Shown in pieces: positions 2,168-20,000 of a stretch of 20,000 nt of DNA. The notes beneath the pieces are model-generated. The model did not search any database, was not told the DNA's origin, and saw only the letters and a list, made by a program, of their open reading frames with translations. Both the position numbers and the translations under genes were made by a program. Position 1 is the first letter of the stretch. Each line of letters opens with the position of its first letter. Source of the stretch: an uncultured virus (IMG/VR IMGVR_UViG_3300031687_000005) (taxonomy: Duplodnaviria; Heunggongvirae; Uroviricota; Caudoviricetes); IMG/VR virus record IMGVR_UViG_3300031687_000005. One strand, 5' to 3'.

Positions 2168-2688
2168 CATTAATAATAAACCCAATAACTCAGTCTCAGA
2201 CTATATCTATAAACTCTTTTGGTATAGGGTTAAACTCTCTACCGAATGGTTCTCTTGAGAGTTTGATGGAACTTAAGTACGCCTTTGAAGGGTGGCCCTC
2301 TATTCCGTCTAACGTATCTTATGGTGATGTTGTTGTTTTCAATAACATAGTACCAGCAAATGTAAACCCTTATGGGGTTGAATTAGAGAAGGCTAATACT
2401 AGCACACCAGGTCATGCTAATAAAACTATGATGGTGTTTATTAGTCACGAGAGTGGAGTTCTTACGTTAATGCATAAAGGTTATATTGATTTTACTACTA
2501 TAACAGAAAGCTCTCTTAGCTCTTACGCTCAAGGTGACGGTTTATATGTGAACGGAAGTAATATAGCTATAAGCCCACCCCAAACTACAGGTAGTTGGGT
2601 TAAGTCTATAGGGTTTTGTATGCCGAACATGGAAGGAGTTTACAGAATCTGGTTTGAATCAGACAGTACGTATTTTACAATAGGATAA
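2164..2688 (+). CDS. Putative virion structural/fibre accessory protein
   Basis: 174 aa, ATGA overlap with the upstream gene. C-terminal 'GDGLYV...PPQTTGSWVKSIGFC...IWF' resembles small beta-rich capsid/fibre accessory domains. Confidence 0.45.
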   Translation: MTLIINPITQSQTISINSFGIGLNSLPNGSLESLMELKYAFEGWPSIPSNVSYGDVVVFNNIVPANVNPYGVELEKANTSTPGHANKTMMVFISHESGVLTLMHKGYIDFTTITESSLSSYAQGDGLYVNGSNIAISPPQTTGSWVKSIGFCMPNMEGVYRIWFESDSTYFTIG

Positions 2689-6326: not shown

Positions 6327-6872
6327 ATGGCTCAAACAAGTATAGAATATACTGAGTACGGTCAGCAATATATAACCCTTCCTCTGGTGATTAAAAACAC
6401 CATGGGCGGGGTAATTGTTGTTAGTAAGGTTTATGTACAGAACATTTTCTTGCCAGAATCGGCTGTATCACAAGATGATTTGGTTTTAACCATAAATGAA
6501 AGTAACTCTGATTACTCAGAGGTTGAACAGAATTCAACAACCGACTACAAGGTTGTACACCCTAATGGGTTTAATGGAGCTTATGATGGCAACTTCAAAG
6601 TTGAACGAGTAATATCTTTAGGTATAAGCACTTCCTTTACTTTTCAGGTTGTATTTAACCCAAATCTTAGTAGGCATATAATAAATAGAGGTAACTTTGT
6701 AGGAAAGGTTGTGGTAGAGTATTCTATATATGGAATAGCTCAACCTAATTTCGAACTCAACTTAGAAGCATCGTGCTCAGATAAATCTATTACATTATTT
6801 AGCGGAGTACCTTATGGTAGCGTAAGTAATGTATTTGGAATAGCAGTAAACAACGTAAGAAACTTAAACTAA
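6327..6872 (+). CDS. Hypothetical structural protein (beta-rich)
   Basis: 181-aa ORF tightly packed in the operon; its stop overlaps the next ATG (TAATG). Confidence 0.55.
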   Translation: MAQTSIEYTEYGQQYITLPLVIKNTMGGVIVVSKVYVQNIFLPESAVSQDDLVLTINESNSDYSEVEQNSTTDYKVVHPNGFNGAYDGNFKVERVISLGISTSFTFQVVFNPNLSRHIINRGNFVGKVVVEYSIYGIAQPNFELNLEASCSDKSITLFSGVPYGSVSNVFGIAVNNVRNLN

Positions 6873-14685: not shown

Positions 14686-15233
14686 TGGATAAGGATAGAT
14701 TAGAGTATTCAGGATGGCTAACGCTTTGTATAGCGTTGTTAGTTTTCATTTTAATAGGTATTAGCACTGTAGCTAAAGCTCAACAACAGCAAGTGTTTGT
14801 AGAATGTACAACAGGAGAATATCCTGATGAAGTTTCTTGGCAGATACTAACATGTAATGGAGGTATCTTACTAGAAGGTATAGCCCCGTACTTAGGTGCT
14901 GTGGTTTTACCAGAATATTACCAGATAAACATGGTTGATTCATACGGAGACGGATGGAATGGTGCATACTTATATGTAGGACAGACTGAATATGGTTTCT
15001 TATCTGATGTAGATTGGATAGACTCTCTTGGTACTTGGCCTCAAGAATTTAAAGAACAACTAGTAGACGTAGGGTGTTTGACTATAGGGATAGAAGAGGT
15101 AGATAATACAAGATTCATTCCAACTCACTACTACGATATTTTAGGTAGAGAAGTAGAACCCGTTAGAGGTTTCTATATAGCAAGCAATGGCATACTAACT
15201 AGAAAGGTTTACATAGATGAGATTAAGCGATAA
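14685..15233 (+). CDS. Secreted protein with DSYGDGWNG domain and T9SS type-A CTD-like C-terminus
   Basis: Signal/TM ...VAKA|QQQ. 'GEYPDEVSWQI...DSYGDGWNG' is a module common in flavobacterial secreted proteins. The C-terminus reads 'IGIEE...YYDILGREV...GFYI....TRKVYI'. Confidence 0.65.
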   Translation: MDKDRLEYSGWLTLCIALLVFILIGISTVAKAQQQQVFVECTTGEYPDEVSWQILTCNGGILLEGIAPYLGAVVLPEYYQINMVDSYGDGWNGAYLYVGQTEYGFLSDVDWIDSLGTWPQEFKEQLVDVGCLTIGIEEVDNTRFIPTHYYDILGREVEPVRGFYIASNGILTRKVYIDEIKR

Positions 15234-15675
15234 TTTTGTATTGTCTGAGGTCACTCGAAGCAATGCAGCTAAACGATTGGGCATAGATAATGGACCTAGT
15301 AAAGAACACTTACGAAGTATACAAAGAATTATTACTAACCTTATACAACCTATGCGAGAAGCTCTTGGTCCTATTAGGATTAGTAGTGGTTATCGCAACC
15401 CAGCCCTCAACAGGGCTATCGGTGGAAGTGTTAAAAGTCAGCACTGTAAAGGTGAGGCTTTGGATTTACAATTCTGGAGTGAAGGTAAAATATCTAACAA
15501 AGAGATATATAACTGGGTACTAGAGAGTGGTGTAGAGTTTGACCAAATGATTAATGAATTCGACTTCGCTTGGATACATATATCATTAATCAAAGAAGAT
15601 AATAGAAAGCAAGTGTTGGAAGCCTACAAGGATGAAGACAACGATACTAAATATAAATACGCAGACCTATCATGA
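15217..15675 (+). CDS. Peptidase M15A-family endolysin (Zn peptidoglycan peptidase)
   Basis: 'LSDNFVLSE...ISSGYRNPALNRAIGG...SQHCKGEALD...WIHIS' contains the SxH-x6-D and HxS Zn-ligand motifs. Confidence 0.85.
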   Translation: MRLSDNFVLSEVTRSNAAKRLGIDNGPSKEHLRSIQRIITNLIQPMREALGPIRISSGYRNPALNRAIGGSVKSQHCKGEALDLQFWSEGKISNKEIYNWVLESGVEFDQMINEFDFAWIHISLIKEDNRKQVLEAYKDEDNDTKYKYADLS

Positions 15676-16055
15676 GCAAACTACTAGATTTTTTAGGTGG
15701 AAGCATCTTAGGAAGCGTTGGTAATATAGTAGATAACCTTACTACCTCTGATGAGGAGAGGTTGGCTGCTAAGAAAGCAATAGAAGAAGTTCTTATGAAG
15801 GCCGAAGTTCAGGCACAACAGGAAGTCACAAAGCGATGGGAAGCTGACATGAAGTCTGATAACTGGCTTAGTAAGAATATACGACCACTGATATGCATAT
15901 TTTTAACTGCCATATTTGTGGTTGTTTCTATTTTTGATGGTAACGCTGGTGGATTTACTATATCACCAGGCTATGTACCTATATATCAAACACTTCTTAT
16001 AACTGTATATGGTGCTTACTTTGCTGGAAGGACTATAGAAAAGATAAAGAAATAA
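15672..16055 (+). CDS. 3TM (GTA-type) holin family protein
   Basis: 'VDNLTTSDEERL...RWEADMKSDNWLSKNIRP...YGAYFAGRTIEK'; adjacent to the endolysin. Confidence 0.75.
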   Translation: MSKLLDFLGGSILGSVGNIVDNLTTSDEERLAAKKAIEEVLMKAEVQAQQEVTKRWEADMKSDNWLSKNIRPLICIFLTAIFVVVSIFDGNAGGFTISPGYVPIYQTLLITVYGAYFAGRTIEKIKK

Positions 16056-16580: not shown

Positions 16581-16859
16581 ATGGCAAGAAACACATTAGC
16601 GGGTAAAGGTAAAGGGTTAAGTAGAAGTGCAAAATACTACGCTGCAAACCCTGACGCTCGTAAAAAAAAGCAGGCTTATGATAAGAAGTATCATTCAACT
16701 GATAAACGTAAGAGTTATAGAGCTAAGTTGAATAAGAAAAATCGTGAAGCAGGTACTTACGGTAATAAGGATGGGAAAGATATGTCTCATACTAAGAAGG
16801 GTAAGTTAGTCAAGGAAAAGCAATCTACAAACAGAGCAAGAAATCGTGGGAAAAAATAA
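16581..16859 (+). CDS. Small highly basic protein, degenerate HNH-like
   Basis: K/R-rich; 'DGKDMSH...NRARN' resembles the minimal HNH-like proteins of phages. Confidence 0.5.
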   Translation: MARNTLAGKGKGLSRSAKYYAANPDARKKKQAYDKKYHSTDKRKSYRAKLNKKNREAGTYGNKDGKDMSHTKKGKLVKEKQSTNRARNRGKK

Positions 16860-18168
16860 GAATGACGAGCTACGTGCTTATCTAGTCAAAAATCCAGAGA
16901 AATTAAATGGTGGTTATTCAGATACTGCCGCAATGTTTAACACATCTTACGAAGCTGTAAGAGGGCAAGCCAGAAACTTAAGGGCGGCTTTCAATGACGA
17001 TATACAGGCAGCTTCATACTCATCGGCAGAAATACCAAATGAGAAAGTCATCACCAATGAAAAGGAAGACTCGTTAACAATATCAGTAGAGGACAGTAAT
17101 AGAGTAAAATCATTAGATGACCTTATACAGAACTGTAGAGTGGACCTGGATACCTGGGAGGTTGACTGGTTTGACATCGGTACATACGAAGTAACAGGAT
17201 TTGATAACGACAGGAAACCTGTCACTGTTACCATGTATAGAACCAAAGCTAAGTTTAAAAAGATAGATGTCTGGAAGAACATAGCTATACTAAGAGAAGA
17301 TTTAAAACAAGACCTATTAGAAGCATTCCAAGCTTATGCATTTAAACCTACTTATACTATTAGTAAGAAAGAAAGCGAAGGCTATTTGCTCGAGATTGGG
17401 GCATACGACCTGCATTTGGGTAAGTTGGGGATTGATGGCGATAACTATAGTCTTGATGTGGCTAGGGATAGGCTTTTCAGTGCTCTTCATTCCTTATTTG
17501 ATAAGGCGAGAGGATTCAACATCGAAGAAATAGTCTTCGTAGTAGGTAATGACTTCCTTAACATAGATAGAGCTAACCCGTTTAACTCTACTACAGCAGG
17601 TACACCACAAAGTAATACAGTTTCTGCATACGAGGCGTATAGATTTGGGAGAAAGTTGCTGGTTGAGGCTATTAATGGTTTGGCTGCTCAAGCTCCTGTT
17701 CGTGTCGTTGTTGTTCCTGGTAATCATGACGAAGAGTCTATGTTACATATGGGCGACGCATTAGAAGCTCTATACGAGAATACTCCACATGTTACAGTAG
17801 ATAATAGCAGACCCTTAATGAAGGGTTACCAATATGGTGAATGCTTACTTATCTTCGACCATGGACACAGAGTAAAGAACTATAAGAACCTTGCGTCTGT
17901 CATCTCCCAACGCTTTAGAGATGTTTGGAGTAGTGTGAGACACATTGAAGTCCACAGAGGACACCTACACAGCTTAAAGACGAGTGTAATGGGTCAGGTT
18001 GAAGAACTAAACGGTATTGCAGTGCGACACTTGGGTAGTATGTCTGCAACAGACCAATGGCATGATGATAGTGGATACATCTCCTCAATCAAGAGAGCTC
18101 ATGCTTTTATATGGCATAAGAAGAATGGTATGCAGTGTGAGTATTACTATAACGTCCCAATGACCTAA
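16846..18168 (+). CDS. Calcineurin-like metallophosphoesterase with N-terminal extension
   Basis: Motifs DLHLG, GND, GNHD, HGH and GHLH in canonical order; GTG start. Confidence 0.85.
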   Translation: MGKNKNDELRAYLVKNPEKLNGGYSDTAAMFNTSYEAVRGQARNLRAAFNDDIQAASYSSAEIPNEKVITNEKEDSLTISVEDSNRVKSLDDLIQNCRVDLDTWEVDWFDIGTYEVTGFDNDRKPVTVTMYRTKAKFKKIDVWKNIAILREDLKQDLLEAFQAYAFKPTYTISKKESEGYLLEIGAYDLHLGKLGIDGDNYSLDVARDRLFSALHSLFDKARGFNIEEIVFVVGNDFLNIDRANPFNSTTAGTPQSNTVSAYEAYRFGRKLLVEAINGLAAQAPVRVVVVPGNHDEESMLHMGDALEALYENTPHVTVDNSRPLMKGYQYGECLLIFDHGHRVKNYKNLASVISQRFRDVWSSVRHIEVHRGHLHSLKTSVMGQVEELNGIAVRHLGSMSATDQWHDDSGYISSIKRAHAFIWHKKNGMQCEYYYNVPMT

Positions 18169-18297
18169 CCACTACTGTCCATAGGTGATAAGTATTTTAA
18201 AAAAATGTAACATAATTATCTATGACTAAAGTATCTAAACCTTATCTAGACTCTACATACATTATACTACAAGACTTTATGTATTCATTAAATCCAC

Positions 18298-18325
18298 TTG
18301 ACCCAGCTCCAAAAGAGCTGGTCAA
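18298..18325. terminator. Hairpin between convergent transcription units
   Basis: TTGACCCAGCTC-CAAAA-GAGCTGGTCAA (one bulge) lies in the gap between the + strand end (18168) and the - strand end (18390). No clean U-tract. Confidence 0.45.
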
Positions 18326-18389
18326 TGAATGTATATACCAACTTGTTTGTAATTGGTATGATGAATGTGGAAACACTTGTAAGAATTAA

Positions 18390-18605
18390 TTATTCTCCCT
18401 TAGTCGGCTTAACCTTCTTCTTAGAAGGCTTAGGCTTACACTTACATTGTGCTTCACCTTTAGATACCTTTGAACAACACTTAGAGGTTTTCTTCTTTTC
18501 TTTGATTTCTTCAAAATCTCTGTAATAATCCCTTTCATCGTATAGATATTCTTTAGCTATTAGCGCAACGCTTGCGCCTAATATAAGTAGTAGTAGTAAC
18601 TTCAT
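18390..18605 (-). CDS. Small membrane-anchored Lys/Cys-rich protein
   Basis: 71 aa; N-terminal hydrophobic helix, then 'KCCSK...QCKCK'. Confidence 0.6.
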   Translation of the reverse strand: MKLLLLLILGASVALIAKEYLYDERDYYRDFEEIKEKKKTSKCCSKVSKGEAQCKCKPKPSKKKVKPTKGE

Positions 18606-18694
18606 CTTCCTTTAGTTTTGTTAACTGACTTGTCGTATATAATGAATAGGATAACAGCTACTGCCACCCCTACCATGAATATTGCTTGTGTCAT
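18602..18694 (-). CDS. 30-aa single-TM micro-protein
   Basis: Not in the ORF track. MTQAIFMVGVAVAVILFIIYDKSVNKTKGR*; ATGA overlaps at both ends. Confidence 0.65.
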   Translation of the reverse strand: MTQAIFMVGVAVAVILFIIYDKSVNKTKGR

Positions 18695-19035
18695 CTTAGT
18701 TTCTTTATTAGTTCAAGTAAATCTTTCACAAGACTTTCTTTGTTTACAGATACGATATGTTCTTCAATGCTTCTATCGAAATCGTCTCGTGCGTTTAGTA
18801 AGTCAAAGAAATTACTGTCTTCGCCTTCTTCGTCTTTCTTAGCTTCTTCAGCTTCTATTCGCTCTCCTCTCTCGTTCATTAGAATGTCTATCTTATCCTC
18901 TGCTGAGTCTACTCTAGCACTTTCTAGTTGTATTAGTTGATACAATACATCTCTAGTTTTGTTTGCACTCACTAATGAATCTGCGATTTGACCTAACGCT
19001 TGTGTAACGTGTTCGTTGAATTCTTCTTGTTTCAT
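18691..19035 (-). CDS. Acidic coiled-coil hypothetical protein
   Basis: 114-aa ORF bounded by degenerate junction repeats. Confidence 0.65.
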   Translation of the reverse strand: MKQEEFNEHVTQALGQIADSLVSANKTRDVLYQLIQLESARVDSAEDKIDILMNERGERIEAEEAKKDEEGEDSNFFDLLNARDDFDRSIEEHIVSVNKESLVKDLLELIKKLR

Positions 19036-19042
19036 CTTGGTT

Positions 19043-19243
19043 TTATTTAGCTCTGGTTAATATATTGACAGGTTCTTTACCTCGTCCTATTAGTAGCTTA
19101 TCTACTGCGATAGCTGCCTCTCTTTCTGTATCAAACTTACTCCTACTAACTCCATGTATATTTATGTACCAGCGTTGTATGTTATTAGTTCGAACACTAG
19201 CTACATGTTTATACATACTCTTAGCGTAGTTCATTTTATTCAT
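19043..19243 (-). CDS. AP2-like DNA-binding domain protein
   Basis: 'YKHV...RWYINI...FDTEREAAIAVD...G.EPVN' matches the AP2 pattern (YxGV..W.A.I...F.T..EAA.AYD). Confidence 0.65.
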   Translation of the reverse strand: MNKMNYAKSMYKHVASVRTNNIQRWYINIHGVSRSKFDTEREAAIAVDKLLIGRGKEPVNILTRAK

Positions 19244-19244
19244 C

Positions 19245-19409
19245 TTAGTCTTGTTTTAGTTCGTTAGGGATTTCCATCCATCTAATTATTTCTCCTTTTA
19301 ATGTAGTTTCCCACATATCTAACCATTCTGTACTTGTGTAATAGCACAACTTGATGTAGCCGTTACTCATTCTACACACATAACTTCCTTCTTTTTTTGG
19401 TTGTTCCAT
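19245..19409 (-). CDS. 54-aa DUF551-like protein
   Basis: Not in the ORF track. MEQPKKEGSYVCRMSNGYIKLCYYTSTEWLDMWETTLKGEIIRWMEIPNELKQD*, with a P..G.Y...W...I..WM.IP pattern. It starts in one repeat and ends in the next. Confidence 0.7.
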   Translation of the reverse strand: MEQPKKEGSYVCRMSNGYIKLCYYTSTEWLDMWETTLKGEIIRWMEIPNELKQD

Positions 19410-19421
19410 CTTAGTCTTGTT

Positions 19422-19514
19422 TTAGTTGTTTAAAAATAGTATCGCCAAATAAAACACCCAAGTTGCCAATATTGAAGCTACGCACCATTCAAACAAGTTA
19501 TTTTTCTTCTTCAT
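19422..19514 (-). CDS. 30-aa single-TM micro-protein
   Basis: Not in the ORF track. MKKKNNLFEWCVASILATWVFYLAILFLNN*. The ATG comes from one repeat, and the stop is the first TAA of the next repeat. Confidence 0.65.
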   Translation of the reverse strand: MKKKNNLFEWCVASILATWVFYLAILFLNN

Positions 19515-19515
19515 C

Positions 19516-19713
19516 TTAGTCTTGTTTTAGTTCGTTGATTCTTTGATTCAATGCTTTTGCAATTTCCTCCACAATAAAACCATCATACATACTGTCAATC
19601 ATATCTATGACATTTTCTAGCTCCTCTACACCTCTTTGTTTAGCATACCTCTCAACTTGTGATTTAAGGTCGCTATCTGAAATGTCTAAAGTTATCGTTT
19701 GTGATTCATCCAT
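19516..19713 (-). CDS. 65-aa hypothetical protein ending ELKQD
   Basis: Runs repeat to repeat. Confidence 0.7.
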   Translation of the reverse strand: MDESQTITLDISDSDLKSQVERYAKQRGVEELENVIDMIDSMYDGFIVEEIAKALNQRINELKQD

Positions 19714-19714
19714 C

Positions 19715-19885
19715 TTAGTCTTGTTTTAGTTCTTCGAAGCTTGCAGTGCACTCTTCAATACCTACATTCTCTAGCATTTCTAGTTGGAATTCACCTGAAT
19801 CCATACTTGCTTTAGCTTTAACCATCATATCAGTGTAATACTGATCAGTCACTGTGGTTTCTATTGTTACTTTTACCTTCTTCAT
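19715..19885 (-). CDS. 56-aa hypothetical protein ending ELKQD
   Basis: Start reassigned to ATG 19885 (MKKVKVTIETT...), 1 nt after the upstream stop at 19887. Confidence 0.65.
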   Translation of the reverse strand: MKKVKVTIETTVTDQYYTDMMVKAKASMDSGEFQLEMLENVGIEECTASFEELKQD

Positions 19886-19886
19886 A

Positions 19887-20000
19887 TTACTCATCTTCTT
19901 CGTTATAACCATCGTCGTTATAAAATCCTGTACCACAAGTTCCGCACCAAGCGTCTTTCGGGTTCTCTCTGTCTTTTCCTAGATTGTCTTCACAATTAGG
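19887..20000 (-). CDS. C-terminal part of a probable zinc-ribbon protein (5'-truncated)
   Basis: Hand translation: ...PNCEDNLGKDRENPKDAWCGTCGTGFYNDDGYNEEDE*, with (C)PNC...CGTC and an acidic tail. Confidence 0.55.
   Translation of the reverse strand, partial: PNCEDNLGKDRENPKDAWCGTCGTGFYNDDGYNEEDE

Follow-up and report, generated by a model that had tools for sequence, protein, structure and literature searches.

An exact 21-base stop/start junction repeat and the probable shuffling of single-gene cassettes in uncultured marine phages

The stretch of viral DNA analysed here (IMG/VR record IMGVR_UViG_3300031687_000005, Caudoviricetes; 20,000 nucleotides, hereafter the window) carries near its right-hand end an array of very small genes joined by an exact repeat. 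This 21-mer, AACTAAAACAAGACTAAGATG, occurs four times in the window, always on the minus strand, and was found in 0 of 200 shuffles. The copies are 166, 105 and 199 bp apart. Any two of them have 21–27 identical bases in common, and the pair at 19241 and 19512 is identical over 27 bases. Exact matching and pairwise comparison thus confirmed what an earlier note, made from the letters alone, had said of the copies. No additional copies with three or fewer mismatches were found in the window. In agreement with the same note, each interval between copies holds a single open reading frame (ORF) that begins at the ATG of the repeat. These three ORFs fill 93–100% of their intervals and have 65, 30 and 54 amino acids (aa). 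The copies and the genes that they join, in the order in which they are read, are:

ORF X, 19715..19894, minus strand: 59 aa from an ATG at 19894; terminates with ELKQD within copy 1; no repeat at its start, which overlaps the 3' end of the preceding ORF.
Repeat copy 1, 19711..19731, minus strand: stop of ORF X (TAA, after ...ELKQD) and ATG of cassette A, as placed by exact match and ORF ends.
Cassette A, 19516..19713, minus strand: 65 aa, predicted to be helical, member of the largest cassette family.
Repeat copy 2, 19512..19532, minus strand: stop of cassette A (after ...ELKQD) and ATG of cassette B; identical to copy 4 over 27 bases.
Cassette B, 19422..19514, minus strand: hydrophobic (membrane) peptide of 30 aa.
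Repeat copy 3, 19407..19427, minus strand: the first TAA of the repeat terminates cassette B (after ...LNN), and the repeat ends with the ATG of cassette C.
Cassette C, 19245..19409, minus strand: 54 aa, no family assignable.
Repeat copy 4, 19241..19261, minus strand: stop of cassette C (after ...ELKQD) and ATG of cassette D.
Cassette D, 19043..19243, minus strand: 66 aa, starts at copy 4; only a loose version of the junction at its 3' end.

The 21-mer consists of 12 A, 3 C, 3 G and 3 T and contains one TAA at bases 4–6 and another at bases 15–17. These stop codons lie in different frames, so upstream ORFs in two of the three frames end inside the repeat. In the frame of the second TAA, a ...LKQD tail is appended to the upstream protein. 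Three unrelated proteins of the window do end with ELKQD, as had been claimed; however, they are the products of ORF X and of cassettes A and C, while the 30-aa peptide stops at the first TAA. Among 60 unique exact junctions, the ORF before the repeat ends with ...LKQD in 32 cases and stops at the first TAA in six, and in 22 cases there is no upstream ORF of at least 25 aa. This distribution indicates that the nucleotide sequence, and not the peptide, is conserved at the junction. Outside the 21-mer, the information content is about 0–0.5 bits at most positions, with a peak of 1.1 bits at −3.

The array proteins are dissimilar. A pairwise blastp comparison of the five proteins of the window (X and A–D) gave nothing at E < 1e-3. 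The profile of cassette family A matched only the 65-aa ORF (E 1e-18; at least 0.023 for the others), and ORF X does not belong to this family (E 0.023, 3.3 bits). The possibility raised earlier that the ORFs are diverged duplicates of one gene thus found no detectable similarity to rest on. A PHROG search with cassettes A–D gave no match, and ORF X has a single weak match of unknown function (phrog_34431, E 0.0081). In Pfam, no array protein had a match at E ≤ 0.01, and at E ≤ 10 only chance-level matches were listed. For the 54-aa cassette C there was no Pfam match even at E ≤ 10, and the label "DUF551-like" given to it previously was therefore dropped. Cassette D, which likewise has no Pfam match at E ≤ 10, presumably resembles a small AP2-type DNA-binding domain, judging by eye. 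Family A comprises 57 distinct small helical proteins (that of the window and 56 others) with a variable N-terminus, a common internal acidic motif and a native ...ELKQD end, from which the 5' half of the repeat may have been derived. In locus L006, several paralogues of this family stand in tandem.

Several roles of the repeat were considered and rejected. No inverted repeat or hairpin was found at any of the four copies in the window, so the repeat is indeed not palindromic like attC, and no terminator-like site was found there either. Between 18200 and 20000, three promoter-like sites were detected against 6.2 expected, none of them at a repeat. The Bacteroidota −7 promoter word (consensus TAnnTTTG) had 23 matches against 22.8 expected; this gave no signal and was not used. 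On these grounds, the repeat is neither a promoter nor a terminator or attC-like hairpin, the motif being unpaired. Its mean unpaired probability is 0.69, compared with 0.48 and 0.55 for the flanks; however, the shuffled motif reaches 0.65, and RNA structure was rejected as the cause of conservation since the value only reflects A-richness.

A better match is offered by the context of translation starts. Counting back from the ATG of the 21-mer, A is found at −2, −3, −6, −8, −9 and −11 to −14. In Flavobacterium johnsoniae, which belongs to a phylum indifferent to the Shine–Dalgarno (SD) sequence, A at −3, −6, −12 and −13 and a run from −14 to −11 are reported to favour initiation (Baez et al., PMC6847099). 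Judged by its letters, the 21-mer is a perfect SD-less start context with every adenine reported for that bacterium. With a background of 0.32, the A frequency before the 24 genes of the window outside the array is 0.83, 0.71 and 0.75 at −13, −12 and −11, 0.62 at −6 and 0.58 at −3. Two of these 24 genes are preceded by SD-like words, and the 21-mer contains none. Thus, the other starts carry an A-rich, loose form of the motif, and this loose form is the ordinary start context of the phage. The exact 21-mer would drive translation as a universal stop/start adaptor. Because the phage genes are without SD sequences, the host most likely belongs to Bacteroidota; this assignment draws on the start contexts and on a weak GroEL signal considered below.

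The exact 21-mer was found in 57 viral-contig stretches, which represent 56 loci (numbered with the prefix L), and in more than 125 metagenome stretches among the matches listed. The carriers are a group of uncultured marine phages. Among the genomes of 185,579 bacterial and archaeal species the 21-mer was absent, and a host-derived repeat was rejected for this reason. A blastn search of positions 18000–20000 against cultured phages gave no match, and a literature search (three sub-strings of the motif, and descriptions of such a system) found no paper. Five related records of 52–147 kb, three of them rated at least 97% complete, were scanned for copies with up to three mismatches. Only one or two tight clusters of 2–6 copies, all on one strand, were present in each, and the reversed-pattern control gave no copies. 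The motif is therefore not dispersed before many core genes, a possibility that the earlier note had left standing, and a genome-wide translation signal was rejected at the level of the 21-mer.

The following counts of copies, proteins and families refer to 182 sequences (viral loci and listed metagenome stretches) and to copies with at most one mismatch. In this set, 352 copies end in ATG, and 157 distinct complete proteins begin at the ATG of a repeat. They form 56 families, none of them with proteins shorter than 25 aa, and the median length is about 65 aa. A few large genes also occur behind the repeat, with proteins of 284–534 aa. In L018, L009/L041 and L014/L051, their products are a GroEL-like protein (534 aa), a PhoH-like ATPase, a Cys-rich enzyme-like protein of 284 aa and another protein of 309 aa. 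A search supports the identity of the GroEL-like protein; PhoH-like and enzyme-like are names that we assume from the appearance of the sequences.

Flanks were clustered at 75% identity over 90 nucleotides (nt) on each side of the repeat. The 169 unique junctions of the 182 sequences combine 92 upstream with 99 downstream flank clusters in 152 combinations. The 3' end of cassette C is followed by eight different downstream flank clusters and that of cassette B by four, and cassettes A, B and C each have six different upstream flanks. In the junctions that were printed out, identity extends as far as the repeat, and the sequences are unrelated from the first codon past the ATG; the same is seen in the reverse direction. 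When the internal ends of blastn alignments were counted, 180 of 860 unique ends lay within 10 nt of a copy, compared with 7.4 expected from coverage. A breakpoint was present within 25 nt at 58 of the 67 repeat junctions and, among the 240 other gene junctions less than 3 kb from the arrays, at 93 (odds ratio 10, p 1.5e-12, an inflated value because these are counts of junctions and not of independent events). The cassette orders, in which letters beyond D denote other cassettes, are as follows:

Window: X-A-B-C-D.
L047: C-A-B-H.
L040: C-A-B-D.
L022: A-B-D.
L038: J-B-C-D.
L025: B-C-F.
L035: C-E.
L019, L021 and L027: C-G.
L014: B-I.

The changes of order are an exact loss of C, replacements of D, and a shift of C from behind A-B to a place before it. 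Thus, cassette C follows B in the window and precedes A in L047 and L040, and the position of cassette D is occupied by other genes in relatives. The alignment of relatives thus supports the proposal that the repeat with its promoterless ORF behaves as a gene cassette: gene order is not kept, and gain, loss and reordering end exactly at the repeat.

Cassettes are also common to phages that otherwise differ. When the 56 viral loci and the window were grouped by their large proteins, four groups were obtained, and L047 fell outside the group of the window; none of the loci grouped with the window shares as many as two large proteins with the group of L047. Between the window and L047, alignments cover the cassettes only, with 98.5% identity over 326 nt for A and B and 95.9% over 193 nt for C, the order being different and the alignments stopping at the repeats. 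With L025, only B and C align (99.3% over 295 nt). The nearest backbone to that of the window is L012, with 85.6% identity over 8.7 kb. In the window as well as in L047 and L025, the exact 21-mer stands on either side of cassettes A, B and C, and nothing else is alike at the nucleotide level. Such near-identical, repeat-bounded cassettes in dissimilar backbones point to recent movement between phages.

Possible enzymes of exchange were looked for in the five related records. Tyrosine recombinases (PF00589) were detected in none of the five, whereas the control genomes were positive in 14 of 14 cases; serine recombinases (PF00239) were likewise absent from all five, and the positive controls were detected. 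With neither type of recombinase and with no hairpin at the repeat, homologous rather than site-specific recombination is likely. Of the co-occurring proteins suggested in the earlier note, the two types of recombinase were thus not found in these five records. In L038, which comes from a 66-kb record rated 97% complete, a homologous-recombination module surrounds the array: genes of a Sak4-like annealase (E 6e-37) and of a RusA-like resolvase (E 3e-19) lie just upstream of it, and that of an exonuclease VIII-like nuclease (E 2e-49) just downstream. Phage annealases are reported to recombine short as well as diverged sequences and to add to mosaicism (PMC5499656, PMC8093625, PMC3945230, PMC5928155, PMC2896510).

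In relatives, a conserved structured element of about 100 nt directly adjoins the first copy of the repeat. This leader is located at L025:10272-10422 (minus strand) and L004:2510-2660 (plus strand) and is also present in L008, L012, L017, L019, L033, L038, L039, L043, L052 and L053. RNAalifold predicts 20 pairs, five of them with changes on both sides that keep the pairing, and no Rfam family matches the leader at E ≤ 1. It is followed by six different first cassettes, and the genotype of the window has an array without a leader. Just upstream of the leader in L004, positions 2470-2539 (plus strand) match the Rfam tRNA family with 36.3 bits (gathering threshold 29). ARAGORN detected no tRNA in ten loci; other loci have a T-arm-like stretch at the position of the L004 tRNA.

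Taken together, these observations make it probable that homologous recombination at the translational junction of 21–27 bp shuffles promoterless single-gene cassettes. As a portable junction between stop and start, the 21-mer would connect the small accessory genes of a leftward operon. In the RNA, it would end the upstream ORF in either of two frames, and the ATG that follows would lie in an A-rich stretch free of structure. Since the junctions before many unrelated genes do not differ by a single base, each gene is flanked by 21–27 bp of perfect homology. Through these junctions, any upstream cassette could be recombined with any downstream one, whether both lie in the same genome or in two phages that infect a cell together, probably by annealase, exonuclease and resolvase functions of the phage or by functions of the host. 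Single promoterless genes would thereby be deleted, inserted, replaced or reordered while translation is kept. Cassettes could also be excised, possibly as circles, with the expression of neighbouring genes presumably undisturbed. The exactness of the repeat might be explained in the same way: cassettes with exact flanking copies stay exchangeable, and copies that have drifted lose exchange, so that the circulating pool would keep its junctions identical. The downstream operon genes, which do not take part in exchange, have decayed versions of the junction.

An alternative is that the 21-mer is kept for expression only, as an optimal translation start or as the binding site of a phage regulator of early genes, and that the joints arose by illegitimate recombination, with selection retaining those at gene boundaries; the repeat would then mark the cassettes without taking part in their exchange. 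The loose motif is the general start context of the phage, breakpoints occur at ordinary junctions as well, and the start-associated sequence (SAS) of Cluster K mycobacteriophages (see below) is similarly exact, oriented and adjacent to ATG, with no recombination role proposed in the passages on it (PMC3203893). However, translation does not require 21 of 21 identical bases, as the loose starts of the 24 other genes of the window indicate, and illegitimate joining would not recreate the same 21-mer at 152 flank combinations. The excess of breakpoints at repeat junctions (58 of 67 against 93 of 240), their position inside the repeat to the base, and the same cassette being always flanked by repeats on both sides in unrelated backbones also speak against this explanation, which we consider unlikely, although worth keeping in mind. 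A lower probability is assigned to a site-specific cassette system in which an unrecognised recombinase acts on the 21-mer as IntI does on attC and the leader is the entry site in relatives. The unit is sharp-edged and exactly identical across many phages, a structured leader of about 100 nt adjoins the first copy and is followed by six different first cassettes, and several neighbouring proteins have no family; nevertheless, the five related records, three of them at least 97% complete, contain no tyrosine or serine recombinase, the repeat has neither inverted symmetry nor a hairpin, the genotype of the window has the array without the leader, and the carriers fall into several backbone groups and have no obvious enzyme in common. 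This makes such a system quite unlikely. In a bolder reading, the array would be a new type of system dedicated to gene capture, a "translational-junction integron": the 21-mer would be the recombination site of an unrecognised phage factor or of an RNA-guided step, the leader with the tRNA-like gene upstream would be the entry platform, and single promoterless genes would be mobile among unrelated marine phage lineages. We regard this reading as doubtful and speculative.

Two further explanations have very little probability. If assemblers had joined unrelated contigs at the short repeat, the shuffling would be chimeric; all comparison sequences are indeed metagenome assemblies, and the ends of 26 of the 56 viral contigs within 300 nt of a copy suggest that assemblers struggle there. 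Contig ends near the copies are, however, also expected if populations are heterogeneous at the array. The six junction types that lead from cassette C to the next gene in the viral set each recur in 2–6 separate records, which speaks against assembly chimeras, the arrangement of the window is reproduced exactly in another contig over 4,760 bases, and a repeat of 21–27 bp should be shorter than ordinary reads. An artefact of this kind is therefore highly improbable. The chance that the array is a diverged tandem family, with the repeat as a conserved gene end, seems practically negligible: even though the largest family (57 proteins) natively ends with ...ELKQD and has paralogues in tandem in L006, the five proteins of the window have no pairwise similarity, the family-A profile matches cassette A only, with 55 other family representatives not significant (best E 0.019), and the 56 families behind the repeat include GroEL-like and PhoH-like proteins and proteins of 284–534 aa.

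The preferred reading, in which homologous recombination acts at the junction, has several observations to contend with, and they should be counted against it. Breakpoints at 93 of 240 ordinary junctions mean that mosaicism is not confined to the repeat. The loci were selected for an exact copy, and many of them are related or represent the same contig in two collections, which is the reason for the caution about the breakpoint counts and their p value. No recombinase was seen among the ORFs of the 20-kb window, as had been stated before, and AAA_24 was detected in only two of the five related records, so there is no single recombinase common to all carriers. A length of 21–27 bp is at the low end of the lengths known for homologous recombination systems. 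At orthologous junctions, the divergence of the motif is 0.044 and that of the flanks 0.14, with only five usable pairs, and the unpaired state of the motif is explained by composition alone. As for the host, the GroEL-like gene of L018 gives only a weak hint: among the 80 best-matching loci, all 20 with at least 56% identity are from Bacteroidota, and Proteobacteria reach 55% at most. A tblastn search of cultured phages with the exonuclease of the window and the DnaB of a relative gave best identities of no more than 35%, with mixed hosts.

Integrons consist of IntI, attI, attC and Pc, and their attC sites are imperfect inverted repeats that fold as hairpins. The array resembles them in its row of single-gene cassettes, which are presumably promoterless, all point the same way, have a repeated site at their borders and vary in content and order. 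In relatives, the leader before the first cassette may correspond to the fixed element of integrons; the genotype of the window has no leader. The array differs in that no tyrosine recombinase was found in the five related records, the site is no imperfect palindrome, and this site is a translation signal partly inside coding sequence, the mechanism being likely homologous recombination. The array is therefore not an integron. The description "integron-like", used in the earlier note, is apt for the behaviour but not for membership, given the five related records with neither tyrosine nor serine recombinase and the repeat with no hairpin.

The array behaves like the PeSL (promoter-early stem-loop) shuffling of T4-type phages, with the difference that the repeat is a translation signal. 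PeSLs are repeated elements between small genes in hyperplastic regions; replacements end there, and recombination gives rise to mini-circles (PMC2839356, PMC4122927). They are defined by a sigma-70 early promoter and a stem-loop terminator or attenuator (Arbiol et al. 2010, PMC2839356; Comeau et al. 2014, PMC4122927). Both systems have a short repeated motif between small non-essential genes of a variable region, and the endpoints of insertions, deletions and replacements between relatives fall at this motif, as was also found here. In both, exchange is ascribed to homologous recombination, and the motif spans from the upstream stop to the downstream start. Unlike a PeSL, the repeat described here has no promoter-like site, terminator or hairpin; it is a pure SD-less stop/start junction of 21 nt, exact, with presumably promoterless cassettes behind it. 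It also overlaps the upstream coding sequence, giving unrelated proteins one tail. PeSL mini-circles were demonstrated by experiment, whereas the array is known from sequence alone.

The modular theory proposes short conserved boundary ("linker") sequences as crossover sites of general recombination, as set out by Pope et al. (2011, PMC3029335). Under this theory, modules exchanged between genomes that are otherwise unrelated have one and the same short sequence at either side, and this is also the case here; the difference is that one exact sequence is found at 152 flank combinations and that the module is a single small gene. The present system is thus one of modular shuffling at a conserved junction, here an exact SD-less stop/start signal that overlaps coding sequence. 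A third comparison is with the start-associated sequences (SAS) of Cluster K mycobacteriophages, which are 13 bp long, have a Shine–Dalgarno core and mostly follow gaps of more than 50 bp (Pope et al. 2011, PMC3203893). Their 11–19 copies are distributed over half the genome, and no gene-exchange role is described in the passages on them (PMC3203893). Like the 21-mer, SAS are exact, asymmetric, short repeats in one orientation, placed at the ATG of non-structural genes that belong to various families; they do not occur in host genomes and are conserved beyond the needs of a ribosome site. The 21-mer, in contrast to SAS, has no SD sequence and no gap, overlaps stop codons, and is clustered where synteny breaks.

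Phage genomes are mosaics, and the cause is debated between crossovers at linkers and random joining followed by selection. To our knowledge, linkers are rarely seen at mosaic boundaries, and the best-studied case is that of the T4-type PeSLs, which are promoter-terminator elements. In the uncultured marine phages described here, one exact translation signal of 21 bases marks 152 different gene joints and would let any gene fit behind any other. The array may thus serve as a natural system, countable in metagenomes, for measuring gene flow between phages driven by short homology. Moreover, several phage lineages are seen here to draw on common pools of small accessory genes; such genes are in general the usual home of host-takeover and anti-defence functions. 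In addition, the junction suggests a compact natural stop/start adaptor for stringing genes in Bacteroidota. A side effect of the arrangement is that unrelated proteins gain the same C-terminal tail.

The surroundings of the array in the window can be described as follows:

Three downstream operon genes, 18390..19035, minus strand: 114, 30 and 71 aa; their starts have a decayed junction with at least two mismatches in the last 12 bases.
Upstream small Cys-rich ORF, 3' end, 19887..20000, minus strand: open at the end of the window; no repeat at its junction with ORF X.

The small-gene operon runs leftward and converges on a rightward block with genes of a tail fibre, an endolysin, a holin and a DNA-repair exonuclease. 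At 15217-16055 and 16846-18168 (plus strand), the endolysin (phrog_894, E 3.5e-31) and the holin (phrog_3427, E 4.6e-27) are followed by the DNA-repair exonuclease (phrog_704, E 1e-61); the latter is the gene on which the operon converges. No tRNAs were found in the window. The sequence L102 is identical to the window base for base over all 4,760 shared bases, and both L082 and L102 are identical to it over the shared 269 bases upstream of the first repeat. The complete Cys-rich ORF can be read in L082 and L102. L082 extends the genotype of the window 2.7 kb upstream, where ordinary small genes without the repeat are located.

Some individual loci deserve mention. L001 and L010 are the two ends of one viral record of 147 kb, and both lie inside the array. 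Read across these ends, the order is C-A / B-H, which is uninterrupted in L047; the record may be circularly permuted or a concatemer. Another side effect of the repeat is that a deletion of one base in it fuses neighbouring cassettes into new two-part proteins. In L011 and L036, the A-run of the repeat has lost one base and the stop is no longer in frame, which joins a 40-aa Cys-rich ORF to the downstream cassette. The cassette is a different one in each case, and the resulting two-part proteins have 104 and 100 aa; counted from the repeat copies at coding-strand positions 6346 and 7423, the fusion junctions are located about 120 nt further on.

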